This document shows, one piece after another, positions 627-47,547 of a stretch of DNA of 64,000 nt (within the stretch, counting starts at the first letter, position 1; each line of letters begins with the position of its first letter). The notes under the pieces are model-generated. The model saw only the letters and a program-made list of their open reading frames with translations. It was not told the origin of the DNA and made no database searches. The translations under genes and the position numbers were made by a program. Origin of the DNA: an uncultured virus (IMG/VR IMGVR_UViG_3300031951_021468) (lineage: Duplodnaviria; Heunggongvirae; Uroviricota; Caudoviricetes); IMG/VR virus record IMGVR_UViG_3300031951_021468. The stretch is one strand, 5' to 3'.

Positions 627-1076
627 ATGACAAATGTAAACGATTCAATTGCAATTAGTGTTTTGTGCTATTGCATTACTGAAGATGGTCAGTGGGTGGT
701 TCATAAGCGCGGGAAGAAATGTAAGACTCCTGATGTTTGGAATTTTCTCACTGGCAAGCTTGAGGCTGGCGAACAGCCATCGGACTGTGCTGAAAGAGAA
801 GTGTCTGAAGAGTATGGATGCTCTGTTTTGGATATGATTTCCTTAGAGCCCCATATGAGTGCGCTGGAAAACAATCGTGGCAAAAAGTATCATTTCCTCA
901 TGATTCCATATTTTGTCAGAATAAATTCAGGGGATATTAATCCAAACAAAAGAGAAGTTGCTGAATTGGCTTTTGTTGATTCTTTTGATGACATTCCCAA
1001 GCCTTATCATCCTGGTCTTTTGAATTCATTAAAGTATCACAAGGAAACGCTCATGAAGCTTCGCCGAGGACGATGA
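627..1076 (+). CDS. NUDIX hydrolase
   Basis: Nudix box GKLEAGEQPSDCAEREVSEEYG. Confidence 0.85.
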   Translation: MTNVNDSIAISVLCYCITEDGQWVVHKRGKKCKTPDVWNFLTGKLEAGEQPSDCAEREVSEEYGCSVLDMISLEPHMSALENNRGKKYHFLMIPYFVRINSGDINPNKREVAELAFVDSFDDIPKPYHPGLLNSLKYHKETLMKLRRGR

Positions 1077-1099
1077 TTATTGTATAATTAGAGAGACTT

Positions 1100-1801
1100 A
1101 TGGACTTTGCGCAAATTAGAAATTTAATACACAAAAGCAATCCCTATGATGGATTCGATTATAAATCTCGGCCTCTTGATCTTCAGGGATGGGCTCAGGA
1201 TGAAACAACAATTCCTGAGCTTGTGGCTATGGTTCAGCCAAGTCTTGTGGTTGAGGTTGGTAGCTGGAAGGGCTATAGCGCCAGTATGTTTGCCAAGGCC
1301 ATTAAGTCACTTCCTCATGCTTGTGGCTTGATTTGCGTAGACACATGGCTTGGTGCGAGAGAGTTTTATTCTACCACGGAAGAAAAAGAAGAAATGTGGT
1401 GGAGTGACATGGTTGATAAGCCAGGATTTCACACTGAGCGATATGATGCGTTAGGATTAGTAAATGGATATCCCACCGTGTATTATCAATTTTTGGCAAA
1501 CATGATGCATCTTGGGAATCAAGATGTTGTTGTTCCTTTCCCGCAAACCTCAACGTTGGCAGGGCGATGGCTTCGATCACATGGCGTTGAAGCCCAGTTG
1601 GTTTATATTGATGCGAGTCATGAATACGATGACGTTTTATCGGACATGAATATATACTGGGACATTGTTTCTCGCGGAGGAATTATGTTCGGGGATGATT
1701 ATTGGATTGATGATATTCGCCGTGCCGTGTCTGATTTTAGCATCAGTAAGCGAATTAAAATCGAGTCTAATGATAGGTTTTGGATTTTAAAGAAATTATA
1801 A
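1100..1801 (+). CDS. Class I SAM-dependent methyltransferase (Methyltransf_24-like)
   Basis: VEVGSWKGYS motif I, CVDTW, YIDASHEY, GGIMFGDDY. Confidence 0.85.
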   Translation: MDFAQIRNLIHKSNPYDGFDYKSRPLDLQGWAQDETTIPELVAMVQPSLVVEVGSWKGYSASMFAKAIKSLPHACGLICVDTWLGAREFYSTTEEKEEMWWSDMVDKPGFHTERYDALGLVNGYPTVYYQFLANMMHLGNQDVVVPFPQTSTLAGRWLRSHGVEAQLVYIDASHEYDDVLSDMNIYWDIVSRGGIMFGDDYWIDDIRRAVSDFSISKRIKIESNDRFWILKKL

Positions 1802-2043
1802 TGTCACATTTGCACATTTGTAATATTCGAAGGGGTGATATTGTTTGGTTTGGTGAAATCAAATTAGAAGCATTATCTGACCCGCAAAGAGTTATGTCAT
1901 TTGGTGATGAACAACCCATCGGATGGTCAGTTGAGTTTTTAGATAATCGGGGAGAAAGAGTAACATTTTTCGATTCTAATCTTTACACATCTTCTAACTT
2001 AGTTTTTAAAAAGGACAACATCAATGAAAGAAGTAAATTTTGA
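1801..2043 (+). CDS. Hypothetical protein, similar to the N-terminal extension of the Pth2 gene
   Basis: ATG overlaps the upstream stop; IRRGDIVWF...GWSV resembles LKQGDIVWE...GWHV at 2292. Confidence 0.6.
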   Translation: MSHLHICNIRRGDIVWFGEIKLEALSDPQRVMSFGDEQPIGWSVEFLDNRGERVTFFDSNLYTSSNLVFKKDNINERSKF

Positions 2044-2287
2044 TTTCACCGTTTGGGTTAAAAAGGGCGAAATGCTTGTGCAGAGAATGACTTTGCCGCC
2101 TTCTGATCCCGATTCTTTGTTTTCTTTATGGCGCAACAAGTTTGGTTTTGACATGCCAAGTGAGGTTGTTGATCAGATATGGGGACCCGATCAGGTGAGT
2201 TATGATGACATCCGCGAGGCGGAAGAAACTTTGAGTTTAATTGATGAAAAAGAACTTTTAGCCATGGGAGCCTTCATCACGGATTAA
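2024..2287 (+). CDS. Hypothetical protein
   Basis: ORF within a co-oriented gene run, AAGGA upstream. Confidence 0.55.
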   Translation: MKEVNFDFTVWVKKGEMLVQRMTLPPSDPDSLFSLWRNKFGFDMPSEVVDQIWGPDQVSYDDIREAEETLSLIDEKELLAMGAFITD

Positions 2288-2291
2288 AATT

Positions 2292-2972
2292 ATGTTAAAA
2301 ATATCAGAACTCAAGCAGGGCGATATTGTGTGGGAGTGTGATCGTGGTCAAAATTTACGACTTGAAATTCAATCCCAGCCCCAGTACGTCACCAGACTTC
2401 ATGGCGCACATGCGCTTGGCTGGCATGTTGTTGCTAAAACTGACGATGGCGCTTTAGTTGATTTGTTTACAGATGACGAAACTTCATGTTATGGCCCCAA
2501 GCTTTATCGCGAGCCCATGTATATCTCTCGATCAAAAAACAACACAGAAAATACAATCGTCCCGAGGGTGTCGGCAGAATCGCAAGATAAAGTTAAACAA
2601 GTCATTATTATGAGAACCAAGTATCCTGACGGCAAGGGCGGGACAAGAAAGTTGCGTTCTGGTAAAATGATCGCCCAAGGCGCACATGCCAGCATGGCGT
2701 TTATGATTGAAATAATCAACGGAGTGGCGTTAACACAGGAAGAAAAAGATTGGATTGATGATAAGTTTACTAAAATTTGTCTTTACGTCGAGTCCGAAGA
2801 AGAGTTATTACAGCTTTATGATCGGGCAAGAGCCATCGGCTTGACATCAAGTCTAATTCAAGACGCTGGTGATACAGAATTTGGTGGTGTGCCAACATAT
2901 ACTGCCTTGGCGATTGGTCCACATCATTCATCCAAAATTGATCCCCTAACAAAACATTTACCACTTCTATGA
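2292..2972 (+). CDS. pth2: Peptidyl-tRNA hydrolase, Pth2 (archaeal/eukaryotic) type, with N-terminal extra domain
   Basis: KQVIIMRT, GKMIAQGAHAS, TKICL, IQDAGDTEF, TALAIGP, IDPLTKHLPLL. Confidence 0.9.
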   Translation: MLKISELKQGDIVWECDRGQNLRLEIQSQPQYVTRLHGAHALGWHVVAKTDDGALVDLFTDDETSCYGPKLYREPMYISRSKNNTENTIVPRVSAESQDKVKQVIIMRTKYPDGKGGTRKLRSGKMIAQGAHASMAFMIEIINGVALTQEEKDWIDDKFTKICLYVESEEELLQLYDRARAIGLTSSLIQDAGDTEFGGVPTYTALAIGPHHSSKIDPLTKHLPLL

Positions 2973-3136
2973 ACACAACCATTATTTATTTACTACGACT
3001 TGTTGCTTTCGTTGCTATATTTGCTGCGATCATAACAACTGTAATTATTGAATCTTCTGGCGCAGCGTTATTATTTATTATTTTCATTTATTGGATTGTT
3101 GATGCGATTAACACTTTACTCCCCATTAGAGAGTGA
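2969..3136 (+). CDS. Small membrane protein (55 aa, not in the ORF track)
   Basis: My translation MNTTIIYLLRLVAFVAIFAAIITTVIIESSGAALLFIIFIYWIVDAINTLLPIRE; ATGA overlap with pth2 and fills the gap to def. Confidence 0.5.
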   Translation: MNTTIIYLLRLVAFVAIFAAIITTVIIESSGAALLFIIFIYWIVDAINTLLPIRE

Positions 3137-3141
3137 TTTTC

Positions 3142-3669
3142 ATGGAAGACTTTGATATTGTCATTCCTGATGAATTTAAAAAGCTCTACAAAGAGTCAGG
3201 GCCGATTATTAAAGTTCCGCACCAAATTTTGCGACAAAAAACCAGTCCTGTGATTAAATTTGGACACAAGTTAAAACAAACCATAAAGGTAATGAAAAAA
3301 ACAATGGAAGATCATCGTGGCTTGGGTCTAGCTGCTCCACAAGTCGGAATTGGCAAACAAATATGTTTAGCTTACACTCCCTGGGATGGTTCTGAGGTTT
3401 TGATTAATCCTTTAATAACGGCTTATTCTGATGAAGTTATTGAGGCAGAGGAGGGATGTTTATCTATTCCAGGCTTAATCGGCGTTGTGAGTCGTTCTGC
3501 GACGATTGTGGTTCGCTATCAGGATGTGAACGGGGTGAATTTTACAAAAGCATTTGATGGATTGTCGGCAGTAGTGATTCAGCATGAAGTAGATCATTTG
3601 AATGGAATTTTATTTACTGATCGTGTGATTCCTGAAACTATATACTGGGAATCAAAAAAGAATGTATAA
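3142..3669 (+). CDS. def: Peptide deformylase
   Basis: All three motifs present: GLGLAAPQVG, EGCLS, QHEVDHLNG. Confidence 0.95.
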   Translation: MEDFDIVIPDEFKKLYKESGPIIKVPHQILRQKTSPVIKFGHKLKQTIKVMKKTMEDHRGLGLAAPQVGIGKQICLAYTPWDGSEVLINPLITAYSDEVIEAEEGCLSIPGLIGVVSRSATIVVRYQDVNGVNFTKAFDGLSAVVIQHEVDHLNGILFTDRVIPETIYWESKKNV

Positions 3670-3680
3670 TATTTAATGCT

Positions 3681-3878
3681 ATGAAACATTGGCTTTTCGC
3701 GATCATTTTAACGATCTTGTTGCCCTCTTTAGTATTTTGGATGTTTCCAGGGGTTATGCAGCTTGCTGCAATGATTTGCTTAGTCGTCTGTATGCTTTTT
3801 ATGATGGTGATCGTTGCTGGTCATTTTATGCTTTGTTTTGAGGACAAAGAATACACCCAAAAGAATAAAGACCAATAG
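3681..3878 (+). CDS. Small two-TM membrane protein
   Basis: Two hydrophobic stretches; TGTATAAT just upstream. Confidence 0.55.
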   Translation: MKHWLFAIILTILLPSLVFWMFPGVMQLAAMICLVVCMLFMMVIVAGHFMLCFEDKEYTQKNKDQ

Positions 3879-3944
3879 TCTCATCCAGCAACAATCGCTG
3901 TTTTAATCTCGTATTATAGTTATTCTGAAAGGAGATAATGATAA

Positions 3945-5240
3945 ATGAGTTATAAGGCTATTGTTTCTAGAATCCATACTAGGCCCCTGCCTGGTTCCGA
4001 TAACATTGTGTTGGGGACTTGCCAGGGTTATCAGGTGATTGTTGGAAAGAACATTGAAGACGGTCAGCTTGGCGTGTTTTTTGAGGCTGGGGGACAGCTT
4101 TCTGAAGGTTTCGCTTCGGCGAACGACTTGGTTCGCCGAAAGGACGCTGATGGTAAGCCCGCGGGCGGTTATTTCGAGCCGCATCGTCGTGTGAAGGCCG
4201 TGAAGATGCGTGGAGCGAAGTCTGAGGGCTATTGGTGCCCGCTAGACAGCCTTGCTTACACGGGTGCTAATTTGGAAAACCTCACCGAAGGGTTTGAATT
4301 TAGCGATCTTAATGGACATCCTATCTGCAACAAGTATTTCACGCCTGAAACGCTTCGTGCCCAGGCCGCGAACAGCAAGAAGAGCCAGAAGGAAAACATT
4401 ATGTTTGCTAAGCATATTGATACCACTCCGTTTAAGAGAGGCATGAATATGATTCCTGAGGGCGCGGTGATTTACATTTCTGAAAAGCTTCATGGGACTT
4501 CTTTTAGATATTCTCATGTTCTCGAAGAAAGTGAAATCGAATATCGAGGATTGATGAAGTTTGTTGCCAAGTGGCTCAATCTTCCTACGACTCGACGAGA
4601 ATGGGTGTATCTCAATGGAAGCCGAAACGTTGTTCTTGAGAAGCGGGCTCCTGGAGCAGAGGGTTATTACGGCAAGGAAGATTTCCGTCGTCATGCCACT
4701 AGTGGAATTGCTCTTCACAAGGGTGAGGTAATTTACGGTGAGCTTGTTGGCTATACGGAAACTGGGGCTCCGATCATGTCTCCTCAGTCCACTTCTGGAT
4801 TGAACGACAAGGCTGTGAAGAGTCGCTTTGGAGACACGATTACGTATCGCTATGGTGCGGAAGATGGACAGTGCAAGACTTACATTTACCGTATCACTCG
4901 GGTGAACGAAGATGGTCACGCAGTGGACCTTTCGTGGCCGCAGATGGTGAATCGTTGCCGCGAGCTTGGACTTACTCCTGTGCCTTTGATTGAGTCGTTT
5001 ATCTTCGATGGCGATTATGAAAAGCTGGCTGAGCGCGTTTCTGTCCTTACAGACGGAGAAAGCGGCATGGATGCGTTGCCTTCTCGATTGGATACTTCGC
5101 ACATCCAGGAAGGTGTAGTGATTCGTTACGAAAGCGAGCATGGCACTGATTGGTTAAAGTCCAAGTCAATCACTTTTGGTTTGCTAGAAGGCTATCTAAA
5201 GGATTCTGATAGCTACGTAGACGCTGAAGAGATTGCTTAA
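3945..5240 (+). CDS. ATP-dependent RNA ligase, DRB0094/Rnl5-like, with N-terminal OB-like domain
   Basis: Motif I EKLHGTS, motif III YGELVG, motif IV EGVVIR, motif V LKSKS; SD-like AGGAGA. Confidence 0.85.
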   Translation: MSYKAIVSRIHTRPLPGSDNIVLGTCQGYQVIVGKNIEDGQLGVFFEAGGQLSEGFASANDLVRRKDADGKPAGGYFEPHRRVKAVKMRGAKSEGYWCPLDSLAYTGANLENLTEGFEFSDLNGHPICNKYFTPETLRAQAANSKKSQKENIMFAKHIDTTPFKRGMNMIPEGAVIYISEKLHGTSFRYSHVLEESEIEYRGLMKFVAKWLNLPTTRREWVYLNGSRNVVLEKRAPGAEGYYGKEDFRRHATSGIALHKGEVIYGELVGYTETGAPIMSPQSTSGLNDKAVKSRFGDTITYRYGAEDGQCKTYIYRITRVNEDGHAVDLSWPQMVNRCRELGLTPVPLIESFIFDGDYEKLAERVSVLTDGESGMDALPSRLDTSHIQEGVVIRYESEHGTDWLKSKSITFGLLEGYLKDSDSYVDAEEIA

Positions 5241-12304: not shown

Positions 12305-13165
12305 ATGTTGTTTCGCGGAAGCATCCGTCACATTCACGTCTTATCAAGACATGACATGAGTCATTTTCAGTTGAATGATCCCTATATTGTTATTTCAGTT
12401 TCCGATCCTGGTAGCAAGCGTGTTTCTTTGAGATCATGCCCAAATAGACTTGATGTTTTGAGCCTTCAATTCCATGACTTGGATTATTCTTCAGATAGGG
12501 GCGGGGTTTTGTTTACGGAAAGTGACGCAAGTCAAATTGTAAATTTCGTGAAGTTATGGCCTGAATTGACAACCATCGTAGTTCATTGTGAGGCTGGCAT
12601 TTCAAGGTCGGCTGGGATCGGGGCCGCAATTTCCAAGTTCTATAATGGCAATGATCGTGAATTTTACGAGCGGCGAAGACCCAATTCGCGAGTGTATTCC
12701 TTGTTGTTAAATGCCTTTATGGACTCCGAGGCCTTCGGAGGAAAAACTATTGTCCCCGAAGGCCCGCTTGTAGGAGTAGGTGCAATTATTTTCAAAGACG
12801 ATAGTCGCAAACAAGTCCTTATGGGATTGAGAAAATCCAAGCTTGGCGATGGGTGCTGGGCGTTCCCTGGAGGACATATGGAGTGGGGAGAAACACCAGA
12901 AGAAACGGCTATAAGAGAAACATTAGAAGAAACTGGGCTTGTAGTAATTCCCGATAATAATTCTCGAAGATATGGATACACAAAAACAATATACCATGAT
13001 CTTAAAAAGCATTATATCACCCTTTACGTTGCTTGTAAGTTAGCGGGAGGAGTTCTGGAAAACAAAGAGCCAGACAAGTGTGATCGATGGGAATGGGTGG
13101 ATGTAGAAAATCTTCCGTATCCGCTTATGGAATCTTTGCCTGATGATTTTAAAAATAACAATTAA
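12305..13165 (+). CDS. Cys-based (PTP/DSP-like) phosphatase fused to NUDIX hydrolase
   Basis: HCEAGISRS (CX5R) in the N half; GGHMEWGETPEETAIRETLEETGL and EPDKC..WEW in the C half. Confidence 0.85.
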   Translation: MLFRGSIRHIHVLSRHDMSHFQLNDPYIVISVSDPGSKRVSLRSCPNRLDVLSLQFHDLDYSSDRGGVLFTESDASQIVNFVKLWPELTTIVVHCEAGISRSAGIGAAISKFYNGNDREFYERRRPNSRVYSLLLNAFMDSEAFGGKTIVPEGPLVGVGAIIFKDDSRKQVLMGLRKSKLGDGCWAFPGGHMEWGETPEETAIRETLEETGLVVIPDNNSRRYGYTKTIYHDLKKHYITLYVACKLAGGVLENKEPDKCDRWEWVDVENLPYPLMESLPDDFKNNN

Positions 13166-15206: not shown

Positions 15207-16157
15207 ATATTATGAACGAACTTAGAAACAAACAATTTTACGTCATGTTCCAAAACCATACGCTAAGTGAGGAAGAAGGAAAAAAACTTTATATACCCGA
15301 AAATAATAAGCCCGCAAAATGGAGCGAGTATGTTGCAGGGGATGAAGATTGGGGGGGAAGAAGGGTTTTATGTTACGGATCATCCCACTCCATGGATTTT
15401 AGATGTGGATAGGATTTTTCCTGTGGAAATTGACTGGGACAACGGATATTCTCAACTTGAGGATGATGAGCATTTTATTTGCGTGAAAAAAATGAGATTG
15501 ATGCCTCCCGTGGATAAAATTGAATACGACGGGAATCAAATTTATTTTAAAGATGGATTTATACACAGAGACAATGACCTCCCAGCAATAATTTACAGTA
15601 ATGGATGCCAAAAGTGGCTTCAAAACGGAAAGCTTCATCGCGACGGAGATAAACCAGCTATAACAATGGCTAGTGGGTATCAAGCGTGGTATAAAGACGG
15701 CGTGAGGCATCGAGGTAATGATTTGCCCGCAGTAATTTCGGCAGATTTTAGTCAATTTTGGCTCATACATGGAAAGTTTCATCGAGGTAATGATTTGCCC
15801 GCCATTGTATGTTTAGATGGTTATCAAAAGTGGTGTCAACATGGAAAAACAGGCCGAGTTGACGAAAGCTTGCCCGCTGAATTGTACGCGGACGGAAGAC
15901 AAGTGTGGTACAGAAGCGGCGTTATTCATCGAGACAATGATTTGCCCGCGATCATAGATTCCAACGGAAATCAAAAGTGGTATCAGAATGGACAAATCCA
16001 TCGCGATGAAGATAAGCCTGCTATTATTATGGGCAGCGGCACCAGATTTTGGATGCGTAAAGGAAGAATACATCGAGATAATAATCTTCCCGCGGTGCTT
16101 TACTCTGATGGCACCAAACGCTATTATCTAAACGGTGAAGAATACTTTCCCGATTAG
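15203..16157 (+). pseudogene. HRxxDxPA-repeat (MORN-like) protein, frameshifted at a G7 tract
   Basis: About 8 repeats HRDNDLPAII..NG.QKW; ORFs 15203 and 15267 fuse if G7 (15351-15357) were G6. Confidence 0.6.
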
Positions 16158-16987: not shown

Positions 16988-17505
16988 ATTTACACAGAAG
17001 TCTTTAATCACTATGGTGTTTATGAATTCAGTAGTTATCGAGATATTAGACAGAAGGCAATGTATATGTCGGATATTCCCGTGTTGGTCAACAGAATTTG
17101 GAACGAACACGGAGACGTGTTCTTCACTGGCGTTTATGGCCATTACATTGATACGCATTTTGGGATTAATGAGTTTGGGCGATCACCAATTGTAATGTTT
17201 AATGCCGATTTTATATCGTTTATTGCGGCGGGATATGAAGATTGCGGAAGGCCTTAGTAAAACAGTTTTATAAAGTCATTAAGAATGAAAAATCTTACCG
17301 CGGCTTAAAACATCACATTAATAATTTGCTCGCGATCATCCGCCTTGATGGGAATGATCTATATTAACACGATGTACATTATATAAACGAAAGGCCATAT
17401 AATCGCTGAACAATTTCATATTCTGTTCGGGGATCGTTGGCGAGGCCCTGTTGCTAGAAAATTAAAAAATACCCTTTTTATTTATTTCAAAATCATATAA
17501 TAATT

Positions 17506-20500
17506 ATGTCAATTACTAAAACAAGAAAATTTTTAGACTTCAAATCTGCTCGGGATTACGCTAGATCATTGGGATTGAAGAATCGTGAGGAATGGTCATC
17601 TTATTGCAAATCGGGACAAAGACCTGATGATATTCCTACTACTCCCGATAGGTCTTACAAGGATAAGGGATGGAAAGGATGGGGTGATTGGTTAGGAACT
17701 GGAACTATCGCTCCTAAAGATCGTGTTTACAAGCCGTTTGAAGATGCTCGCGATCATGCTAGGTCATTGGGATTAAAATCACTACGTGAATGGAAATCAT
17801 ATTGCAAATCGGGACAAAAACCTGATGATATTCCTTATAATCCCGATAGGTCCTACAAGGATCAGGAATGGAAAGGATGGGGTGATTGGTTGGGAACTGG
17901 AACTATCGCCAGTTTTAATCGTGTTTACAAGCCGTTTGAAAATGCTCGCGATCAGGTTAGATCATTGGGATTAAAATCACTACGTGAATGGGAATCCTAC
18001 TGTAAATCGGGACAAAAACCTGATGATATTCCTGCCGCTCCCTATCAGTCATATAAAGATCAGGGATGGATTGGGATGGGTGATTGGTTGGGAACTGGAA
18101 CTATCGCCAGTTTTAATCGTGTTTACAAGCCGTTTGAAAATGCTCGCGATTATACTAGATCATTGGGATTGAAGAATCGTGATGAATGGTATTCTTATTG
18201 TAAATCGGGACAAAAACCTGATGATATTCCTGCCCATCCCGATCACGTTTATAAAGATCAGGGATGGAATGGATATGGCGATTGGTTAGGAACTGGAACT
18301 ATCGCCCTTCAAGATCGTGTTTTTAGGCCGTTTGAAGATGCTCGCGATCATGCCAGATCATTGGGATTAAAGAATCTTGAGGAATGGAAATCCTATTGTA
18401 AATCAGGGCAAAAACCTGATGATATTCCTGCCGCTCCCGATCACGTTTATAAAGATCAGGGATGGAATGGATATGGCGATTGGTTAGGAACTGGAACTGT
18501 CGCCCCTCAAGATCGTGTTTTTAGGCCATTCGAAGATGCTCGCGATCATGCCAGATCATTGGGGCTGAAGAATCGTGAGGAATGGAAATCCTATTACAAA
18601 TCGGGACAAAAACCTGATGATATTCCTGCTAATCCCGATAGATCATATAAAGATCAGGGATGGAATGGATATGGTGATTGGTTAGGAACGGGAACTATCG
18701 CCTCTCAAGATCGTGTTTACAAGCCGTTTGAAGATGCTCGTGATTATGCTAGATCACTGGGATTAAAGAATCTTGAGGAATGGAAATCCTATTGTAAATC
18801 AGGGCAAAAACCTGATGATATTCCTGTCGCTCCTCATCAGTCATATAAAGATCAGGGATGGATTGGGATGGGTGATTGGTTGGGAACTGGAACTGTCGCC
18901 CCTCAAGATCGTGTTTTTAGGCCATTTGAAGATGCTCGTGATTATGCTAGATCATTGCGATTGAAGTCACAAGGTGAATGGTCACCCTATTGTAAATCAG
19001 GACAAAAGCCCGATGATATTCCTGGTGATCCCTCTAAGTCCTATAAAGATCGGGGATGGACTTCTTGGTCAGATTTCCTTGGCTATCAGGGCCATTGGAA
19101 CTCCCGATCATATTTGGGATTCTTGAAATCCATTCAGTCTCTTGCTCCGTATTTGGACGCCAGCGAGCTTTACTTGATACAAATGCAAAGCGGGCTCGCC
19201 AAGGCGGCATCTTTAGGCACATCTAAAGCCTCTAAACTTATTAAAAGACTAGAGGAAATCATCGACTCCAATAAGTCAGATGAAGAGAAGCAAGCTATAT
19301 TAGATGAAATTATTAAGGATACTGAAGATGCCATCGAGAACGGCGAAATCACGGATGAAGAATTAGATGATTTTGATGACTTTGATGATTATCAAGTGGT
19401 TGATACAGTAGCCGATGATGAAGCAAATGGCCCTCGTGCCACGGGCATTGCTGCTCTGACAGCGAATCATCCTATCAAGCCGCTTAAGAGCCGCGACTTT
19501 TCCACGCCCGATAACCTTGTGGGAAATATTCCTGCGATGGCCGACGGTGAAGCGATTGGCTTCATGATTGCCAATCGCACTCAGCGATTGTGGAACGCTT
19601 TTCTGAATAACGGGGAAGACATCAACGCTCCTGATATTCAGGAAGTGCTGAGTTATTCCGATAAGGGTGAATATTATCAAGTCATCGTTAACAAGTTTTT
19701 GACACAGCTAGAACAGGCGAAAAACATTCCCATTCCTGACGGATATAAATTCAGACTCAAGGGGCAAACGGAAATCACACTTCCTAATATGATGCAACGC
19801 CTGACGACGGTTTTGGTGCAAAATCAAAGCTACGTTTTGAATATGAGCGGCACAGGGGCTGGCAAAACTCTCAGCGCGGTTTTCACTAGTCGCGTGATCG
19901 ATGCTCGTGTCACGGTGATCGTAGCCATGAACGCTACTTTAAGCGGCTGGGAATCTGTTATCAAGAACACATTCCCCGATAGCGTTGTGTTTACGAAAGA
20001 CCTTGATACAGTAGATTTTGATAGAGACAAGCACAACTATGTTATTCTGAACTTTGAATCTTTCCAACAGCCAAATTCAAGTAATTATGTGCGAAAACTA
20101 TTGGAAAGCGCGAGTATTGACTTCCTTGTGATCGATGAAATTCATAACATTAAGCAACGATCAGAAGACGAATCGAAGCGATTGCAGATTCTTCGCGCCC
20201 TTCGGGTTCAAGCCCAGGAAAATAATCCAGAACTCAAGGTATTAGGCATGAGTGCGACGCCTGTGATCAATAATTTGATGGAGGGCAAAAAGCTTCTAGA
20301 ATTTGTAACTGGCCATGAATACAAAGATTTGATGCACAAGTCGAACGTGAACAACGCCTTAAGGCTGCATTACCACTTGGTGATTAATGGCATTCGTTAC
20401 CGCCCTTCGTATATGGATCAGCCTCGCGAACATCATCCTGAAATTGATGCTTCCGATCATATCGATAATTTGCTTAAAGTACCCAAGGGCGATGTTGTGG

Positions 20501-21735
20501 CGATGGAACGAGCATTGCTCAAAATCAAAATGCCTACACTATTGGCCAATATTAAAAAAGGTACGATTGTTTATTCGCATTACGTCGGTGGGGGAGAACT
20601 CACACAAATGATTGCTGACGAGATTCGCGCTAAACTTAAGTTAAAGGTTGGTATTTTCACGGGTGAAGACAATACGGGCGTGGACTTGTTCCGCGATGGC
20701 AAGGTAGATGTTCTCGTTGGTAGCAAGCCTGTGTCTACGGGTGTGGATGGATTGCAACATGTCTCCAACCGAATGGTGATTTCATCGTTGCCCTGGACTG
20801 CGGCAGAATACCATCAGCTAATTGGTCGCATCCATCGCCAGGGCAGTAAGTTTACTGATGAAGGTGTAGACATTGTGATCCCCGTGGTTTACGTGGAAGG
20901 CTTCGTGGAAGGAGGCATTAAGCCTTTGCGCTGGTCCTATGACGAGTCTCGCCTTGGTCGTATCCACTATAAACGAACACTTGCGGATTGTGCCGTAGAT
21001 GGCACTGTTGCGAAGGGTGAGCTTGCTGATCCTTCTAAGATGCTTAAGAAGTCGCAAGAAGCTCTTGATAAGTGGGTTGAGCGACTGGAAAACGACGAGA
21101 TTATGCTAATTGATCGCTCCATGCTGATCATTCCGCTTCCGCCCGAAGTAGAAATAGAAGCAAAACGTCGCCATGGTGATTTTAGTGAAATGAATCGTCG
21201 ATGGAACATCACGAATTCACAAAAAACACACAAGCGGCTTCAAGATGACCCATCGGAATGGTATCTGTATCACACGCTCTATGGGGACAAACGAAAGAAC
21301 TGGGAAGAGATTCCTTACGAAAAGATTGCTGAGAAAATCAATCAAATGTCACAGCGATTAGTAGTGGCTGATCTCGGGTGTGGAGAGGCCTTGCTTGCCA
21401 AGGCATTGCCAAATCATCGAGTTCACAGCTTCGATCATATCGCGATCAATGAAGACGTTGTATCTTGTGATATATCTAAAATTCCTTTGATGAACGGCGA
21501 TATTGACGTTGCTGTATTCTCGCTTTCGCTCATGGGATGCAATCTTGGAGAGTATCTAACAGAAGCTCATCGTTGCCTTGCGAACGGCGGGACACTTATG
21601 ATCGCAGAGCCAAAGGATCGCTGGTCCGATTGTGTGTCAGAATTGATTCAGGAAATTGAATCAGCTGGATTTGTGATCGAAGAACAGGAAATTAGATACC
21701 AATTCCTTTATGTAACAGCAAGAAAGCCCCTGTAA
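17506..21735 (+). CDS. Repeat-array (integrase-repeat-like) + SF2 helicase + Rrp8-like SAM methyltransferase fusion
   Basis: 8 x 66-aa repeats; SGTGAGKT, DEIH, SAT, QLIGRIHRQG helicase motifs; ADLGCGE and FSLSLMG methyltransferase motifs. Confidence 0.85.
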   Translation: MSITKTRKFLDFKSARDYARSLGLKNREEWSSYCKSGQRPDDIPTTPDRSYKDKGWKGWGDWLGTGTIAPKDRVYKPFEDARDHARSLGLKSLREWKSYCKSGQKPDDIPYNPDRSYKDQEWKGWGDWLGTGTIASFNRVYKPFENARDQVRSLGLKSLREWESYCKSGQKPDDIPAAPYQSYKDQGWIGMGDWLGTGTIASFNRVYKPFENARDYTRSLGLKNRDEWYSYCKSGQKPDDIPAHPDHVYKDQGWNGYGDWLGTGTIALQDRVFRPFEDARDHARSLGLKNLEEWKSYCKSGQKPDDIPAAPDHVYKDQGWNGYGDWLGTGTVAPQDRVFRPFEDARDHARSLGLKNREEWKSYYKSGQKPDDIPANPDRSYKDQGWNGYGDWLGTGTIASQDRVYKPFEDARDYARSLGLKNLEEWKSYCKSGQKPDDIPVAPHQSYKDQGWIGMGDWLGTGTVAPQDRVFRPFEDARDYARSLRLKSQGEWSPYCKSGQKPDDIPGDPSKSYKDRGWTSWSDFLGYQGHWNSRSYLGFLKSIQSLAPYLDASELYLIQMQSGLAKAASLGTSKASKLIKRLEEIIDSNKSDEEKQAILDEIIKDTEDAIENGEITDEELDDFDDFDDYQVVDTVADDEANGPRATGIAALTANHPIKPLKSRDFSTPDNLVGNIPAMADGEAIGFMIANRTQRLWNAFLNNGEDINAPDIQEVLSYSDKGEYYQVIVNKFLTQLEQAKNIPIPDGYKFRLKGQTEITLPNMMQRLTTVLVQNQSYVLNMSGTGAGKTLSAVFTSRVIDARVTVIVAMNATLSGWESVIKNTFPDSVVFTKDLDTVDFDRDKHNYVILNFESFQQPNSSNYVRKLLESASIDFLVIDEIHNIKQRSEDESKRLQILRALRVQAQENNPELKVLGMSATPVINNLMEGKKLLEFVTGHEYKDLMHKSNVNNALRLHYHLVINGIRYRPSYMDQPREHHPEIDASDHIDNLLKVPKGDVVAMERALLKIKMPTLLANIKKGTIVYSHYVGGGELTQMIADEIRAKLKLKVGIFTGEDNTGVDLFRDGKVDVLVGSKPVSTGVDGLQHVSNRMVISSLPWTAAEYHQLIGRIHRQGSKFTDEGVDIVIPVVYVEGFVEGGIKPLRWSYDESRLGRIHYKRTLADCAVDGTVAKGELADPSKMLKKSQEALDKWVERLENDEIMLIDRSMLIIPLPPEVEIEAKRRHGDFSEMNRRWNITNSQKTHKRLQDDPSEWYLYHTLYGDKRKNWEEIPYEKIAEKINQMSQRLVVADLGCGEALLAKALPNHRVHSFDHIAINEDVVSCDISKIPLMNGDIDVAVFSLSLMGCNLGEYLTEAHRCLANGGTLMIAEPKDRWSDCVSELIQEIESAGFVIEEQEIRYQFLYVTARKPL
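17527..19083 (+). repeat. Coding tandem repeat, 8 x 198 nt
   Basis: Unit F..ARD.ARSLGLK...EW..YCKSGQKPDDIP..P...YKDQGW.G.GDWLGTGT.A. Confidence 0.95.
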
Positions 21736-21823
21736 TGCGGGGCTTTCGAATCACAATCGTTTATATATTTTATTGTGGAATAATGGTATTGGCAAGCCTA
21801 TAAAAACAAAGGGATGTAAAAAC

Positions 21824-22591
21824 ATGTCAAAAAATAAAAATAACGAAGCGACAAAAAAATCTGTCGAAAATAAGGTAACAATTCCTGTTTCTAAAGCCTA
21901 TTCGCGCCACGGTGCGACTCCCATGTTGCTAAGTCATAATGAGGAACACTGGTCATCACTTCGTAAGTCTTGGTCAGAACACGGAGTTGAACTTAGCGAG
22001 GACAAGCCTATTGAAGACATGAAAAATGCCATTAGCGGTGCGGCGGAACCATTGTGGGACGTGACAAGACAAACTCAGATGATAAACAACTCAACAGCCC
22101 ATCAGGGTAGAAAATTGGTGAACGTCAAAATCACAAGCCCAAAGGGCTTAAAAAAAGGTGAATGGGAGACACAAATCATGAACATACACTTTAACACTGG
22201 GCTTAAATATGATAAAATGATTATGCCGTGGCATGTAAGGATTTTCAACTTTAAGCGTTTTCGCAGTGTTAAGGCAGTCTACACTGTGGGATTTGAACCA
22301 TATCTTGATTTGCTTCATCCTATAACTATTAATTCTGATGCAAAAACTATTCACGAAAATGCTTATAAAGCCATCAGTGCCACGATTCCTAAAACATTCA
22401 TTATAAAGAAGATTAATGTCAAAATTGATCAAGATGTTACAGGCTTGGGCAATCTTACCAAATGGATGAAAATGCAAGTAATTAAGTTTAAATTTAACAA
22501 TAAGCGTCGCAAAGCAGAGCATGATGTGAAAAGAGGTCGAGCGCCAGACCAGCTCCATGCTCGATCATCTTATGAAACGATTGATGATTGA
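21824..22591 (+). CDS. Hypothetical protein, paralogue 1
   Basis: MSKNKN...ARSSYETIDD; aligns with the 22710 gene. Confidence 0.75.
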   Translation: MSKNKNNEATKKSVENKVTIPVSKAYSRHGATPMLLSHNEEHWSSLRKSWSEHGVELSEDKPIEDMKNAISGAAEPLWDVTRQTQMINNSTAHQGRKLVNVKITSPKGLKKGEWETQIMNIHFNTGLKYDKMIMPWHVRIFNFKRFRSVKAVYTVGFEPYLDLLHPITINSDAKTIHENAYKAISATIPKTFIIKKINVKIDQDVTGLGNLTKWMKMQVIKFKFNNKRRKAEHDVKRGRAPDQLHARSSYETIDD

Positions 22592-22709: not shown

Positions 22710-23477
22710 ATGTCAAAAAATAAAAACAAAAGGACAAAAAAGACTGTGGAGAAAGATATAAAATTTTCTCCCGTTCAAAACAACTCACAACATGATGCGA
22801 CCGCTGCGTCAATCAATGAGGACCACTGGAAAGAAATTCGCAAAAACTGGGCAGAAATTGGAGTTGAGCTTAGTGAAGACCAGCCGTTTAAAGACATGGA
22901 AGTTGCCATCAGAACGGCGACACAAGGTATGTGGGGTGCAGCAGCGTCTGAACCAGTTCCCCGAAGTCATAGACATATTCAGTCAGTGGCCGTGACGTTC
23001 AAGAGTATGGACGCCATGAAGAGAGGGGCATGGGAAAATCAACTTATAAACATACATTTCAGCACTCGCCTTGATTATGACAAAATGATTGTTCCCTGGT
23101 ACGCAAGGCTTTTCGGCAGCACCCGCTACCGCAGGATTAAAGCAATTTACACTGTAAAATGTGATCCGTATCTTAAATTTAACCATCCCGTCGTTGGCCT
23201 TGCCAATATGAAAAAATTCAGCGAAAATGTTTTCATAGCCCTTGATGGCGCGATGCCAAAAACACTCATGGTGAAGAAAATTGATATCATGATTGATCAA
23301 GATGTTAAAGTTCTTGGAAGTCTTACTGAATGGGCGCGACTGCAAGTAATTAAGTTTAAATTTAACATGAAGCGTCGTAACTTAGAGCATGATTCAAAAA
23401 GAGGGCAAGAGGTAAAAAAGGCCCAAGCACAAGATCAACCTCGCGCTCGATCATCTTATGAAACGATTGATGATTGA
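22710..23477 (+). CDS. Hypothetical protein, paralogue 2
   Basis: MSKNKN...ARSSYETIDD. Confidence 0.75.
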   Translation: MSKNKNKRTKKTVEKDIKFSPVQNNSQHDATAASINEDHWKEIRKNWAEIGVELSEDQPFKDMEVAIRTATQGMWGAAASEPVPRSHRHIQSVAVTFKSMDAMKRGAWENQLINIHFSTRLDYDKMIVPWYARLFGSTRYRRIKAIYTVKCDPYLKFNHPVVGLANMKKFSENVFIALDGAMPKTLMVKKIDIMIDQDVKVLGSLTEWARLQVIKFKFNMKRRNLEHDSKRGQEVKKAQAQDQPRARSSYETIDD

Positions 23478-23631
23478 TCTTCAAAATTCCCCATTGTTCT
23501 AGTACCATGTTCCGTATGTTAAAACAATGGGGAATTTTTTCGCGCATTGATTATTGTCACAAAGTGCTTTCTTGGATATGATTGTAGTTTAAAAATCCCC
23601 TTTTTATTTATTTCACAATCATATAATAATT

Positions 23632-24429
23632 ATGTCAATTACTAAAACAAGCAAGTATCTTGATTTTGAGTCTGCTCGCGATTATGTTCAGTCATTGAAT
23701 TTAAAAAGTTTCACAGATTGGCTATCTTATTGCAGATCGGGCCTGAAGCCCTGTAATATTCCTAGCTCACCGACCACAGTTTACAAAGATCAAGGATGGA
23801 AAGGATGGGGGGATTGGTTAGGAAATAATAGATTATCACCAAGAAATCGTCAATACCTTGATTTTGAGTCTGCTCGCGATTATGTTCGGTCATTGAATTT
23901 GAAAAATGCAAAAGAATGGGAAGCTTATATTAAATCTGGTCAAAGGCCCAGTAATATACCTTCAGCACCAAGGTCTATCTACAAAGATAAAGGATGGGTT
24001 TCTCTTGGTGATTGGCTTGGTACTAAATCAGTATCATATCGATACCGCCAATATCTTGATTTTGAGTCTGCTCGCGATTATGCTCGATCACTGGGATTGA
24101 AAAACGCGAAAGAATGGTTTTCCTATTGCAAATCAGGTCAAAAGCCCAATAACATACCGTGGTTGCCTTGTAAAAAATATGAGAACCAAGGATGGGAAGG
24201 CTATGGTGATTGGCTTGGTACAAAAACTAGGCGAAGAGGAGGAAAGTTTCTTGATTTTGAATCTGCTCGGGATTATGTTCGATCACTGGGACTCCAAAGT
24301 TCGCAGGATTGGAATAAGTTTTCTGCATCTGAAGAAAGACCATATAACATTCCGTCATGTCCACACCTTACATACAAAAACAAGGGATGGAAAGGATGTC
24401 CTGACTGGATTGGCAACCACGATAAGTAA
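23632..24429 (+). CDS. Repeat-only protein (4 integrase-repeat-like units)
   Basis: Same MSITKT start and the same ~66-aa repeat as the 17506 gene; no enzyme domains. Confidence 0.85.
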   Translation: MSITKTSKYLDFESARDYVQSLNLKSFTDWLSYCRSGLKPCNIPSSPTTVYKDQGWKGWGDWLGNNRLSPRNRQYLDFESARDYVRSLNLKNAKEWEAYIKSGQRPSNIPSAPRSIYKDKGWVSLGDWLGTKSVSYRYRQYLDFESARDYARSLGLKNAKEWFSYCKSGQKPNNIPWLPCKKYENQGWEGYGDWLGTKTRRRGGKFLDFESARDYVRSLGLQSSQDWNKFSASEERPYNIPSCPHLTYKNKGWKGCPDWIGNHDK

Positions 24430-26624: not shown

Positions 26625-27713
26625 ATGAATAAATTGCCAGTTTCAGTTTTGTCGGGCTTTTTAGGCGCGGGCAAAACTACTTTATTGAATCATATTCTTA
26701 GTAATCAAAATAAATATAAAGTTGCCTTGATTATTAATGACATGTCTGAAATTAACATCGATGCTGAGTCTATTAAAGGCAAGATTGTCAGAGCCGATGA
26801 AGATGTTGTTGAGTTGACAAATGGTTGTATTTGTTGTACTTTAAGGCAAGATTTGCTAAAAGAAATTTCCCGATTGGCACTTGAGGAAAAGTATGATTAT
26901 TTGATCGTAGAATCCACGGGTATATCCGAACCTATGCCCGTGGCGAATACATTTGCAATGCCAATTGACGACAATAGAGTGCTTGGAGATATTGCGCGGC
27001 TAGACGCTATGGTGACAGTTGTTGATGCTTCATCAATCGTGGAAAATCTTAAACAAAATCATGCAGCGGATGGAGCCGAAAAGCCCCTAAGCCAATTGCT
27101 TGTCGATCAAATTGAATTTGCAGACATCATTGTTGTGAATAAATGCGATCTTGTAAGCGAAGACAAGAAACAAGAAGTTTTGTCTTTTGTGAAAAAGATG
27201 AATCCGAAATCAAAGATAATTACTGCCACCAATGGAGAAGTTAATATTGATGAAATTCTGGACACTGAATTGTTTAACATGCATCAAGCAACACAACATC
27301 CAGGCTGGTGGGAAGAACTTCATAACGGTCATGAATCTGAGATTGATGAATACGGCTTTAGTAGTTTTGTCTTTTCTACGAACATGCCCCTAAAATCTGA
27401 AAGAGTGGCAGAAGCCATGAAAAAAGAATGGAAAGGCGCATTGCGCGTTAAGGGATGGTTTTATACAAGCTCAAATCCCAATTACAAATATATCATTGCT
27501 CAAGCTGGTAACCAGCGTGTTGTCGAGTATTGCATGCCATGGGGAAATGAAACTCCTATGTCACAAATCGTTTTCATTGGCATAGGAATAGACAAAAAAC
27601 AAATAGAGTCACTCTGGAATAATTGTATTTTGACAGATAGCGAGTTGTTAAAATGGGAAGAAAATAATTATTCCGAAGAAAACGATCCCTTCAAACAAAT
27701 GCTTGGAATTTAA
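26625..27713 (+). CDS. COG0523/CobW-family G3E GTPase (Zn metallochaperone)
   Basis: [38 protein letters not shown]-terminal domain. Confidence 0.92.
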
Positions 27714-45484: not shown

Positions 45485-46270
45485 TCATAATGTCAATATT
45501 AAGGGGCCATTTTCTGTAATTGCCACGGTGTGTTCCCAGTGAGCCGAATGAGAGCCATCAGAAGTATATATCGTCCAAGGATCAAGCTTGTCTTTCGTAA
45601 TATCACCCGATCCCATTGTAAAAATAGGTTCTATACAGAATGTCATTCCTGGCACAATATTTACCCCCGAATCTCCTTCTTCATAAGAATTAAGAATCTG
45701 TATTCCTAGCTCATGTAATTCTTGACCTATCGAGTGACCGCAAGCCGCAGATACCACGCCGAAGTTTTTTTTATCGGCCATTTTCTGAATATGCTTTCCA
45801 ATGTCGCTTGTTTTTTTTATGTCTCCTGACATAATTTTTTCAATCGTTGACAAAAGTGCCAAGTGTGTATATTCAGATAGTATTTTTGACTCTTTGTATT
45901 CATCACTGTCATTGTCTTCTACTACGATAGTGATAGCCGCATCGGCATACCAATAAGCTTTAGATATAGCCATGTCCAAGGTTACAATATCCCCCTTTTT
46001 TATCGTATAGTCGGAGGGCGGGGCGTGAATAATTTGATTATTAACTGAAATACAAGTTGCATGCTGGTAAACATGATCGGAAAATCGGGGCTTAAATCCC
46101 TTTAATGCGGCCACTGCACCACAACTCTTAACATACGATTCTCCTATAGAATCAATTTCCAAGGTTGTGATACCTGGCACCACTGACTCTTTCATGATTT
46201 TAAGGGCATCGGCTAAAATGGCCCCAGTGATAAACATCTTTGAAATTTCTTGTTTCGTTTTTAATCTCAT
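45485..46270 (-). CDS. map: Methionine aminopeptidase type I
   Basis: CISVNNQIIH, DIVTLD, ADAA, CGHSIG..LHE, IEPI, SAHWEHTVAIT. Confidence 0.95.
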   Translation of the reverse strand: MRLKTKQEISKMFITGAILADALKIMKESVVPGITTLEIDSIGESYVKSCGAVAALKGFKPRFSDHVYQHATCISVNNQIIHAPPSDYTIKKGDIVTLDMAISKAYWYADAAITIVVEDNDSDEYKESKILSEYTHLALLSTIEKIMSGDIKKTSDIGKHIQKMADKKNFGVVSAACGHSIGQELHELGIQILNSYEEGDSGVNIVPGMTFCIEPIFTMGSGDITKDKLDPWTIYTSDGSHSAHWEHTVAITENGPLILTL

Positions 46271-46384
46271 TACACTTTCCTTGTACAATTTTTAAAACAG
46301 AAAAGGCGCGTTTAACGTCTGCGCCAAGACGACAATTTTATAGGAGGAATCGAATTTACGATAATATGTAAAAATAATTGAAAA

Positions 46385-47547
46385 TCACGAAGGTGTTAGA
46401 ACGCATTACACATAAACACATAATGTGAATATCACTCTGAAAGTGAAACTCAATACAAATGAGATTCATCATAGTGCGCTTCTGCGCACTATGAATACTT
46501 TCAATGATGTTTGTAATGAGCTTTCAACAATAGCTCATTCAACAGAAACTTATAATAAAGTTCAATTGCAAAGAAATGCATATCATGGGATGCGTGAAAC
46601 GCATCCAAGCTTCTCTTCTCAATTAATAATAAGGGCTATTGATGTGGTTACCGCTACATATAAAAAGAAAAGAAGCAAAAATCCAAATTACTTCAAAAAG
46701 ACTTCTGCTGTCGTCTACGACGACAGAGTAATCACTTTTAAAGGAACTGATTTAGTTAATATCTGGACTAATGATGGAAGAATCAATATCCCAATCCAAA
46801 TATACGACAAAGAACGCTTCAAATATAGAAAGGGGCAAGTTGATTTAGTTTATCAAAATGGCAAGTTCTATCTTCTTTGTACTTTAGAAATTCCAACAGA
46901 ATCAGCCTATAACGCCAAAGACGTTATAGGAATAGACTTAGGAGTGAAACAAATCGCTGTAAGTTCTTTAGGAGATGTGTTCTCGGGAGAACACATCGAG
47001 AAGAAAAGAAAACAATATCACTCTCATCGACAAAGATTGCAGAAGCGTGGAACACGCTCTGCAAAAAGAAGAATCAAGAAATGTGGACAAAAAGAATCCA
47101 GATTTAGAAAAGACACAAATCACGTCATTTCAAAACTTTTAGTAACAAAAGCAAAGGCACTCGGATATGCGTTGGCTCTCGAAGAGCTAACGCATATCAA
47201 CAAAAGAGTAACGGTCAGGCGAGTGAATAGAAGTCAAAGAATGAGTTGGGCATTCGCCCAACTCAGAAGCTACATTACTTACAAAGCTGAACTCTATGGA
47301 GTTCCTTTAGCTATTGTTCCTGCTCACTACACGTCTGCGACGTGTAGTGAGTGCGGATATTGTGAAAAAGCCAATAGAAAAAGTCAAACTGTGTTTCTCT
47401 GCATGTCCTGCGGACACACGGAGAATGCAGACTTTAATGCCAGTAAGAATATAGGTTCTTTAGGGGAGCAGTCAACCTCCCTATTGTTCGCTCAGCCGAA
47501 GGCTGAGCTTGTAGCAAGCCACACGCCTTGTGCGTGTGGTAGTTGAC
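46385..47547 (+). mobile_element. tnpB-only (IS1341-like) element; left end approximate
   Basis: No tnpA nearby; right-end hairpin CCACACGC-CTTGT-GCGTGTGG then TAGTTGAC. Confidence 0.7.
46425..47546 (+). CDS. tnpB: TnpB RNA-guided endonuclease (IS200/IS605 family)
   Basis: RuvC-I GIDLG, RuvC-II ALEEL, Zn ribbon CSECG/CMSCG, RuvC-III NADFNA. Confidence 0.93.
   Translation: MNITLKVKLNTNEIHHSALLRTMNTFNDVCNELSTIAHSTETYNKVQLQRNAYHGMRETHPSFSSQLIIRAIDVVTATYKKKRSKNPNYFKKTSAVVYDDRVITFKGTDLVNIWTNDGRINIPIQIYDKERFKYRKGQVDLVYQNGKFYLLCTLEIPTESAYNAKDVIGIDLGVKQIAVSSLGDVFSGEHIEKKRKQYHSHRQRLQKRGTRSAKRRIKKCGQKESRFRKDTNHVISKLLVTKAKALGYALALEELTHINKRVTVRRVNRSQRMSWAFAQLRSYITYKAELYGVPLAIVPAHYTSATCSECGYCEKANRKSQTVFLCMSCGHTENADFNASKNIGSLGEQSTSLLFAQPKAELVASHTPCACGS

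Follow-up and report, generated by a model that had tools for sequence, protein, structure and literature searches.

Fusions of a methyltransferase with a Swi2/Snf2-type ATPase are already known from conflicts involving phages and plasmids, in the form of DarB. According to excerpts of PMC5512222, DarB is a methylase-SWI2/SNF2 dyad that protects injected phage DNA, in which an LPD36 domain comes first, followed by an EcoKI/TaqI-type N6-adenine methylase and then the helicase. Here, we report the analysis of a single gene at positions 17506 to 21735 of a 64,000-nucleotide (nt) stretch of DNA (the window) from an uncultured Caudoviricetes virus (IMG/VR record IMGVR_UViG_3300031951_021468), which encodes an N-terminal array of eight INT_rpt repeat units, a Snf2-type motor, and a C-terminal methyltransferase of the Rrp8/nucleomethylin type. 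As far as those excerpts describe DarB, the two have in common a methyltransferase and a Swi2/Snf2-type ATPase in one polypeptide, carried on phages or mobile DNA; unlike DarB, the phage protein has an Rrp8-type methyltransferase at its C terminus, without a DPPY-type motif, and an INT_rpt array at its N terminus. The protein therefore falls outside the DarB group, as the excerpts define it, by the family of its methylase, the order of its domains, and the missing motif.

The literature searched contained no description of an INT_rpt array joined to a Snf2 motor and an Rrp8-type methyltransferase. The C-terminal domain and its S-adenosylmethionine (SAM)-binding residues are like those of RRP8/nucleomethylin, but here the domain is phage encoded and shares one chain with a Snf2-type motor and an array of repeats. 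The repeats have the unit pattern of the Pfam family INT_rpt (PF14882), here placed N-terminal to a Snf2/Rrp8-type fusion and not on an integrase. The protein belongs to a large, so far unstudied family of enzymes whose front end is swappable. We read it as a DNA-tethered Snf2-type motor with an Rrp8-type methyltransferase, acting in phage-host conflict, and would put the chances of this reading at about even. The array would be a multivalent DNA-binding tether, made of beads of ~55 amino acids (aa) joined by linkers of ~10 aa, that loads the motor onto duplex DNA; the motor would track along the DNA or distort it, and the methyltransferase would mark the substrate that this exposes, with a DNA base as the likeliest target. 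By analogy with DarB-type dyads, the enzyme may mark or protect the phage's own DNA, or it may mark host DNA. The data themselves show the domain layout, the intact catalytic motifs, the folds assigned to motor and methyltransferase, the breadth of the family, the exchange of array types, and the mosaic makeup of the units; that the array binds DNA, what is methylated, and what the enzyme does for the phage are what we infer.

The intact helicase superfamily 2 (SF2) motifs that a sequence-only reading of this gene had placed downstream of the repeats were all recovered, namely motif I (GTGAGKT, aa 782), II (DEIH, aa 877), III (SAT, aa 916), and VI (QLIGRIHR, aa 1104). Pfam matched the motor to ResIII (E value, 1.5e-10), Helicase_C (9.5e-8), and DEAD (3.1e-6), and the ATPase motifs and SAM-binding residues were invariant across 33 and 62 aligned relatives. 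An AlphaFold2 (AF2) model of the core (aa 536 to 1409), built from 62 aligned cores, reached a predicted local distance difference test score (pLDDT) of 82.1 and a predicted template modeling score (pTM) of 0.67. Its top Foldseek matches in the PDB were Mot1, ISW1, Chd1, BAF, CSB, RapA, and SsoRad54 (E values, 2.6e-15 to ~2e-12), and the best matches in a viral structure library were phage SNF2/HepA-type helicases. From this model, the motor is predicted to fold like Swi2/Snf2 DNA translocases. The Swi2/Snf2 ATPases (RapA/HepA, SsoRad54, ISWI, Chd1, and Mot1) are the closest motor structures, with the DExH box and SF2 motifs in common; unlike those remodellers, the phage protein is without their accessory domains, and it falls below the Pfam cut-off for SNF2-rel_dom.

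The SAM domain had likewise been read from the sequence as Rrp8-like, and this stood: Methyltransf_8 matched aa 1217 to 1398 with 150.7 bits (cut-off, 27; E value, 7.4e-44). By sequence, the domain matched human RRP8/nucleomethylin (2zfu) with an E value of 3.1e-29, and Foldseek aligned it to 2zfu_B with a template modeling (TM) score of 0.84, a root mean square deviation of 1.9 Å, and 33% identity. The SAM motif DLGCGE lies at aa 1289 to 1294, and D1289, G1291, C1292, G1293, E1294, D1310, and D1322 were invariant. The connector between ATPase and methyltransferase carries eight residues that were invariant in 33 aligned relatives (W1143, S1144, D1146, R1149, K1156, D1161, D1165, and G1166). 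Between array and motor lie a helical adaptor (~aa 537 to 621), an acidic linker (~aa 620 to 678; net charge of -9 over aa 620 to 680), and a second helical segment (~aa 681 to 739); this region is conserved among aligned relatives and matched no Pfam family. In the core model, helices span model residues 2 to 86 and 146 to 204, and pLDDT falls below 50 at residues 85 to 143.

The core (aa 560 to 1409) had 1,149 homologues at an E value of ≤1e-3 in a search that scored 8,000 candidates. A survey with one genome per species, covering 185,579 bacterial and archaeal species, confirmed 212 relatives in its candidate stretches, and ~17 viral loci carried the core as well; the family exceeds 1,000 proteins in bacteria, one archaeal metagenome-assembled genome (MAG), and phages. 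The 97 main open reading frames (ORFs) of the loci carried either INT_rpt units (24/97) or DUF4379 treble-clef zinc modules (60/97) or neither (13/97, some of them truncated), and none carried both (0/97). INT_rpt units on the core numbered 0 to 12 per protein and DUF4379 modules 1 to 14, and a few relatives had Sigma70_r4 or RNA_pol_A_CTD in the N-terminal slot.

A maximum-likelihood tree built from 62 cores puts the phage protein, on a long branch, at the base of an INT_rpt clade of 19 rows (17 with INT_rpt and two of viral origin that have a single zinc module or none), and the zinc (DUF4379) clade contains the other 43 rows. One of these 43, from a Berkiella-like MAG (L054, 1661 to 5602), has seven INT_rpt units on a core nested with full support among DUF4379-bearing Chlamydiota proteins, and it is the clearest swap of array type. 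Supported branches of the tree force at least three changes of array type, and the array slot is interchangeable on one core. Two cores, L021 from a Verrucomicrobiota MAG and L031 from a Chlamydiota MAG, are nearly identical (branch lengths, 0.016 and 0.017), and in each a tyrosine-integrase-like ORF ends 110 nt upstream, which suggests that a mobile element has recently carried the gene between lineages. No neighbouring ORF cluster was recurrent across 99 loci, the largest being response regulators (10 loci), ABC ATPases (8 loci), and tyrosine integrases (7 loci); the gene stands alone and is mobile. One DUF4379 array (L056, 8723 to 12613) summed to 43.5 bits for Pfam TAL_effector (cut-off, 28), with no single stretch passing; this score is probably a repeat artefact.

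INT_rpt, which Pfam names "Integrase repeat unit" (formerly PHINT_rpt), is a named repeat family of unassigned function. Excerpts of PMC11502894 list PF14882 among integrase markers, and excerpts of PMC8078820 place it among repeat families modelled without known structure. The whole phage protein scored 34.0 bits against the family (cut-off, 26.5; E value, 3.5e-8), with no single stretch passing alone, and a protein recovered with the unit profile (P0137) reached 100.8 bits. Near-invariant residues in 143 aligned units were F4, A7, L14, W22, P32, I35, P36, P39, Y43, W48, D53, L55, and G56. An AF2 model of units 3 to 5, built on 62 aligned three-unit windows (pLDDT, 84.4; pTM, 0.40), placed helices at unit positions 4 to 13 and 19 to 27 and short ones at 39 to 42 and 51 to 55, and the 10- to 12-residue linkers were less confident. 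On this model, we read the units as independent small domains on a string and not as a solenoid.

The partners of INT_rpt elsewhere were surveyed with a profile from the 143 units (A3), which returned 9,065 cluster representatives at an E value of ≤1e-3. In the top 150 hits, 83 proteins were essentially pure arrays and 67 had at least 120 aa of other sequence; a Pfam scan covered 54 of those 67. An Mrr_cat_2 nuclease with ResIII and Helicase_C preceded a C-terminal INT_rpt array in 8/54, and helicase domains alone were present in 13/54. The remainder had the Methyltransf_8 architecture (3/54), SNF2-rel_dom with Helicase_C (1/54), GIY-YIG (1/54), MTES_1575/DUF559 (Vsr-like) endonuclease domains (2/54), ankyrin repeats (1/54), or no other Pfam family (25/54). 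Units were collected from 111 of 121 proteins (the query and 120 listed homologues), giving 621 units, of which 611 came from other proteins; these 611 were basic, with a mean net charge of +2.15. Because of the fusion partners and the charge of the family, the array is most likely a DNA-binding tether.

The same survey bears on a third function for the array, that of a protein-protein scaffold (for example, a virion or host-complex anchor) whose variable surface residues would be free to drift. That 83 of the top 150 INT_rpt proteins were without an attached enzyme is consistent with a scaffold, as are the unit's lack of a recovered DNA-binding fold, the near-neutral charge of the phage protein's own units, and the nearly neutral evolution of the variable sites described below. 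However, INT_rpt has repeatedly been fused to DNA-acting enzymes, zinc modules or sigma region 4 replace it on the same core, and its charge is basic family-wide; we consider a scaffold very unlikely.

Several results weigh against the DNA-tethered motor. For the unit, the best Foldseek match in the PDB had an E value of 1.7, of 48,161 chains compared by VIA-align, 11 had Z scores of ≥2 (best, 2.9, RepB 3dkx; LOTUS, Sf6 small terminase, and GntR, ~2.1), values too low for a fold to be named, and the unit profile against PDB sequences reached an E value of 0.39 at best; with no solved fold for the unit, it is fusion partners and charge that argue for DNA binding. The phage protein's own units are barely basic, with charges ranging from +3 to -2, and the array as a whole has a net charge of +4 and an isoelectric point (pI) of 8.4. 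SNF2-rel_dom stayed below its cut-off in the phage protein (18.4 versus 24.9 bits), although it passed in relatives (L019, 26.1 bits; L041, 31.4 bits; P0204, 26.5 bits). No defence or anti-defence family matched in PADLOC or NCBIfam, where the similarity seen, to BrxHII, DrmD, DpdE, and RadD, was weak and of a general helicase kind. The weakest link of the DNA-motor reading is the methylation substrate: no [DNS]PP[YFWH] amino-DNA-methylase motif was present anywhere in the protein, Pfam found no N6-methylase family on it, and characterised Rrp8-family members methylate 25S/28S rRNA, forming 1-methyladenosine (m1A).

This last point leads to the main rival, an RNA-directed role, in which an Rrp8-like m1A methylase would work with an SF2 ATPase that remodels RNA or ribonucleoprotein and an array bound to RNA or the ribosome, in a take-over of translation. 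Such a role would suit the 33% identity of the methyltransferase to human RRP8, and also a window rich in translation genes (peptide deformylase, PTH2, an M24 peptidase, an RNA ligase, and three tRNAs). The ATPase, however, resembles Swi2/Snf2 double-stranded DNA translocases over DEAD/DEAH RNA helicases, the partners of INT_rpt arrays elsewhere are DNA nucleases, and the alternative N-terminal modules, Sigma70_r4 and RNA_pol_A_CTD, are DNA-binding types; we hold the RNA-acting enzyme to be unlikely. As for known DNA-targeting systems, type ISP and type III restriction-modification were rejected, with no nuclease or N6-methylase family by Pfam and only the weak helicase hits in PADLOC and NCBIfam, as given above. 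The sequence-only reading had also seen no nuclease motif, and the Pfam scan gave no nuclease family at an E value of ≤0.01.

Eight 66-aa tandem units, as first read from the sequence, were recovered in register in an open frame, with starts at aa 9, 75, 141, 207, 273, 339, 405, and 471. Tandem Repeats Finder (TRF) reported a period of 198 nt at 17547 to 19060 (7.6 copies; 85% matches; score, 1,836). The residues after LK in units 1 to 8 are NRE, SLR, SLR, NRD, NLE, NRE, NLE, and SQG, and those after DIP are TT-P-DRS, YN-P-DRS, AA-P-YQS, AH-P-DHV, AA-P-DHV, AN-P-DRS, VA-P-HQS, and GD-P-SKS. At the W-x-G-x position, units 1 to 7 have KGW, KGW, IGM, NGY, NGY, NGY, and IGM, and unit 8 has TSW. 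The variant strings quoted for the units in the earlier reading match the sequence letter for letter; its W-x-G-x list was correct in all seven entries and omitted the eighth. This eighth unit is degenerate, with a DNA identity to the others of 60 to 66% versus 72 to 90% among units 1 to 7.

The earlier reading had described fixed hypervariable sites, but variation is not limited to a handful of positions: 26 of 66 codons vary among units 1 to 7. In helix 2, the variable residues (positions 19, 20, 23, and 26) share a single face, and others fall in the loops at 37 to 42 and 49/51. The mean identity between units (0.73) was the highest of 99 proteins with at least three units (median, 0.51); the unusually uniform scaffold is thus peculiar to this phage protein. 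The suggestion that variants had been shuffled between repeats was borne out: a four-gamete test on 37 informative sites found 277 of 666 site pairs incompatible, the incompatibilities were spatially clustered (pairwise homoplasy index [PHI]-like statistic, 0.188 versus 0.416 ± 0.031; 0 of 5,000 permutations as low), and the mosaic of the units needs at least eight exchange events. Tandem arrays ordinarily show shuffling of this kind, left by gene conversion or unequal crossing-over. A 1,058-aa protein that is 100% identical and starts inside unit 6 (P0002) was considered as a shorter allele and read instead as a contig-end truncation.

The proportions of synonymous (pS) and nonsynonymous (pN) differences among units 1 to 7 were 0.337 and 0.140 over all codons (pN/pS, 0.41). 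They were 0.380 and 0.344 at the 26 variable codons, where the pN/pS of 0.91 is biased upward because the codons were picked post hoc, and 0.313 and 0 at the 40 invariant codons (pN/pS, 0). A pS of 0.31 with a pN of 0 at invariant codons means that the scaffold is under purifying selection while the variable sites drift. In the 611 units from other proteins, mean entropy was 2.43 bits at the 26 columns that vary here versus 1.45 bits at 39 that are invariant here (Mann-Whitney P = 4.4e-4), and the variable positions of the phage array coincide with the low-constraint columns of the INT_rpt family. Differences between units would then have arisen by duplication and gene conversion under purifying selection, at low-constraint positions that are probably solvent exposed, and may tune affinity.

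Turnover of arrays was also apparent between orthologues. In Pseudanabaena and Phormidium, cores were 82 to 93% identical and arrays, of 5 to 9 units, 58 to 68% identical, and no unit found a match of >83% identity among the units of its sister protein. In five orthologue pairs, synonymous divergence (dS) was 0.78 to 1.21 in arrays versus 0.22 to 0.39 in cores, and the ratio of nonsynonymous to synonymous divergence (omega) was 0.23 to 0.32 in arrays, 0.15 to 0.23 in cores, and 0.41 to 0.64 at the twenty most variable positions. With array dS far above core dS and omega similar, unit turnover or replacement is indicated, not faster amino acid change. The arrays are older than the cores or differently derived, which fits modularity and not selection-driven retuning.

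These data bear directly on a second rival, a recognition code, in which a few specificity residues would let each unit recognize a defined short element of DNA or RNA, and the order of units would spell the target of the motor-methylase. The sequence-only reading had proposed such an array-guided translocase/methylase; a modular array on a motor and methylase is supported in outline, and the reprogrammable code of the TALE or PPR kind is not. TALE, PPR, PUF, and C2H2 zinc-finger arrays, in their generally known properties, resemble the phage protein in having small tandem modules in variable copy number with an effector attached; unlike them, it does not confine specificity to a small, fixed group of residues, it gave no sign of positive selection, and its three-unit model did not predict a rigid solenoid. 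The variable unit number (0 to 12), the swapping of array types on one core, the gap between core and array identity in Pseudanabaena and Phormidium, the zinc modules of the sister clade, and the placing of variable residues on one face of helix 2 and in loops could all be expected of a code. As for rigidity, the low pTM of the three-unit model and its weaker linkers are compatible with ordering on a ligand, and C2H2 zinc-finger arrays are likewise beads on a string when off DNA.

On the other side, TALE, PPR, and PUF arrays are built of near-identical units that differ at one to three positions, and here 26 of 66 vary, in a family whose units are ~51% identical within a protein; the positions that vary are the generally unconstrained columns of that family. 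Diversifying selection or a discrete residue vocabulary was equally lacking: pN/pS is <1 among units, omega is <1 in all five orthologue pairs (also at the top-entropy positions), and the excess of array dS is what replacement of units would give. The K-W/I-M/N-Y pairing at positions 49 and 51 was uncoupled across the 611 units (rank 394 by corrected mutual information), and ~20 unit positions exceeded 2.6 bits of entropy across the family, with no discrete vocabulary. Nearly neutral evolution of the variable sites had been named beforehand as an outcome that would speak against a code, and the values obtained come close to it. Nor does the array look like the target of a diversity-generating retroelement: no reverse transcriptase was found among 50 window ORFs scanned, and contigs from four runs in four studies were invariant apart from one single-nucleotide polymorphism (SNP). 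By these sequence comparisons, fixed hypervariable positions do not appear to be a recognition code, and we consider the code improbable. The pattern that had suggested it is the outcome of purifying selection and gene conversion in any young tandem array.

A bolder proposal extends the code to both module types: INT_rpt and DUF4379 would be sequence-reading DNA modules, in whole arrays swapped and retuned by lineages to retarget a programmable Snf2-Rrp8-type writer of a DNA mark, with a chemistry new to DNA methylases, in phage-host conflict, and the writer could be a prokaryotic ancestor of the chromatin-associated nucleomethylin. We regard this as a long shot. Returning to the DNA-tethered motor, this family departs from the DarB theme in two respects: its methyltransferase is of a kind known elsewhere only from the eukaryotic rRNA enzyme Rrp8/nucleomethylin, and its motor is fitted with interchangeable arrays of small modules. 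Identification of the substrate could uncover a new nucleic acid mark, could give INT_rpt (9,065 protein clusters) and DUF4379 their first functions, and could bear on the origin of eukaryotic Rrp8.

A virus record of 378,848 nt (G001), rated complete, was identical to the window over the 5,001 nt compared and is therefore not an independent copy; the gene is carried by a ~379-kb jumbo phage. By unit profile, the only INT_rpt genes of this record were the one described here and that at 23632 to 24429; a search with the Pfam INT_rpt model gave no match in it and none in control genomes either, and was uninformative. A phage collection of 50,697 records gave five matches, each confined to the array region, and no close cultured relative was found. 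The stretch was found in 20 sequencing runs from 13 studies, labelled as freshwater or "fungus" metagenomes, with no RNA run among those listed. The short-read contigs of the four runs break inside the array, so they are silent on unit order, and no joints were seen in them.

The features of the gene and of the rest of the window are collected in Table 1.

Table 1. Coordinates of the fusion gene, its domains, and other features of the window
Feature	Position (nt)	Strand	Basis or remarks
Whole gene: INT_rpt array/Snf2-type ATPase/Rrp8-type methyltransferase fusion	17506..21735	+	Open frame, 1,409 aa; Pfam domains
Array of eight 66-aa INT_rpt (PF14882) units	17530..19113	+	TRF, unit alignment, Pfam, AF2 model (predicted)
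INT_rpt unit starts	17530, 17728, 17926, 18124, 18322, 18520, 18718, 18916		Eighth unit degenerate, merges into adaptor
Helical adaptor, acidic disordered linker, and second helical segment	19114..19785	+	Family alignments, core model (predicted)
Swi2/Snf2-type SF2 ATPase	19786..20925	+	Pfam, SF2 motifs, Foldseek
Conserved ATPase-to-methyltransferase connector	20926..21153	+	Invariant residues; helical in core model
Rrp8/nucleomethylin-type class I SAM methyltransferase (Methyltransf_8)	21154..21732	+	Pfam, 2zfu, Foldseek
Stand-alone gene of four INT_rpt units (265 aa; pI, 9.5)	23632..24429	+	Pfam INT_rpt, E value 2.8e-8; TRF period 198
Two paralogous ORFs between the INT_rpt genes	21773-22591, 22710-23477	+	46% identity, E value 1e-78; both end ARSSYETIDD
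296-aa ORF of ~23-aa repeats	15267-16157	+	Repeat pattern ..G.Q.W...G..HRD.DLPA..
TnpB-like ORF (OrfB_IS605 and Cas12f1-like TNB domain)	46425-47546	+	
Host-like metabolic and translation genes: two NUDIX, Methyltransf_24, PTH2, peptide deformylase, RNA ligase, CobW GTPase, M24 peptidase	627-5240, 12305-13165, 26625-27713, 45485-46288		

The window is phage-like in content, with three tRNAs (Met, Arg, and His), two NUDIX genes, an amidase, TnpB, and PcfJ-like genes; its M24 peptidase is of the methionine aminopeptidase type. Neither of the two paralogous ORFs between the INT_rpt genes matched a Pfam, PHROG, NCBIfam, or PADLOC family or gave a usable protein-atlas match. The 296-aa ORF upstream of the array gene matched no Pfam family at cut-off and consists of repeats that resemble MORN repeats. 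No transposase adjoins the gene, no candidate DNA target repeats were found within the window, and promoter-like sites were at chance level (21 found versus 19.5 expected). No convincing inverted repeats were found around the gene; the only pair (16 nt, 88%; 17375 to 17390 and 21757 to 21772) brackets it, likely by chance. A GC-rich hairpin lies at the gene's stop codon (21722 to 21747), and a 19-nt, 95% hairpin at 23483 to 23538 precedes the four-unit gene.

The four-unit gene begins as the large gene does (both MSITKT..), and its start, together with 44 nt upstream, has 72% DNA identity to 17462 to 17836; its 265-aa product could serve as a separate array subunit, or the gene could be a remnant of duplication. 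Elsewhere, one locus (L094, 7262 to 14199; duplicate locus, L095), on viral contigs of 501 kb and 308 kb, carries six consecutive INT_rpt-array genes of 3 to 8 units each.

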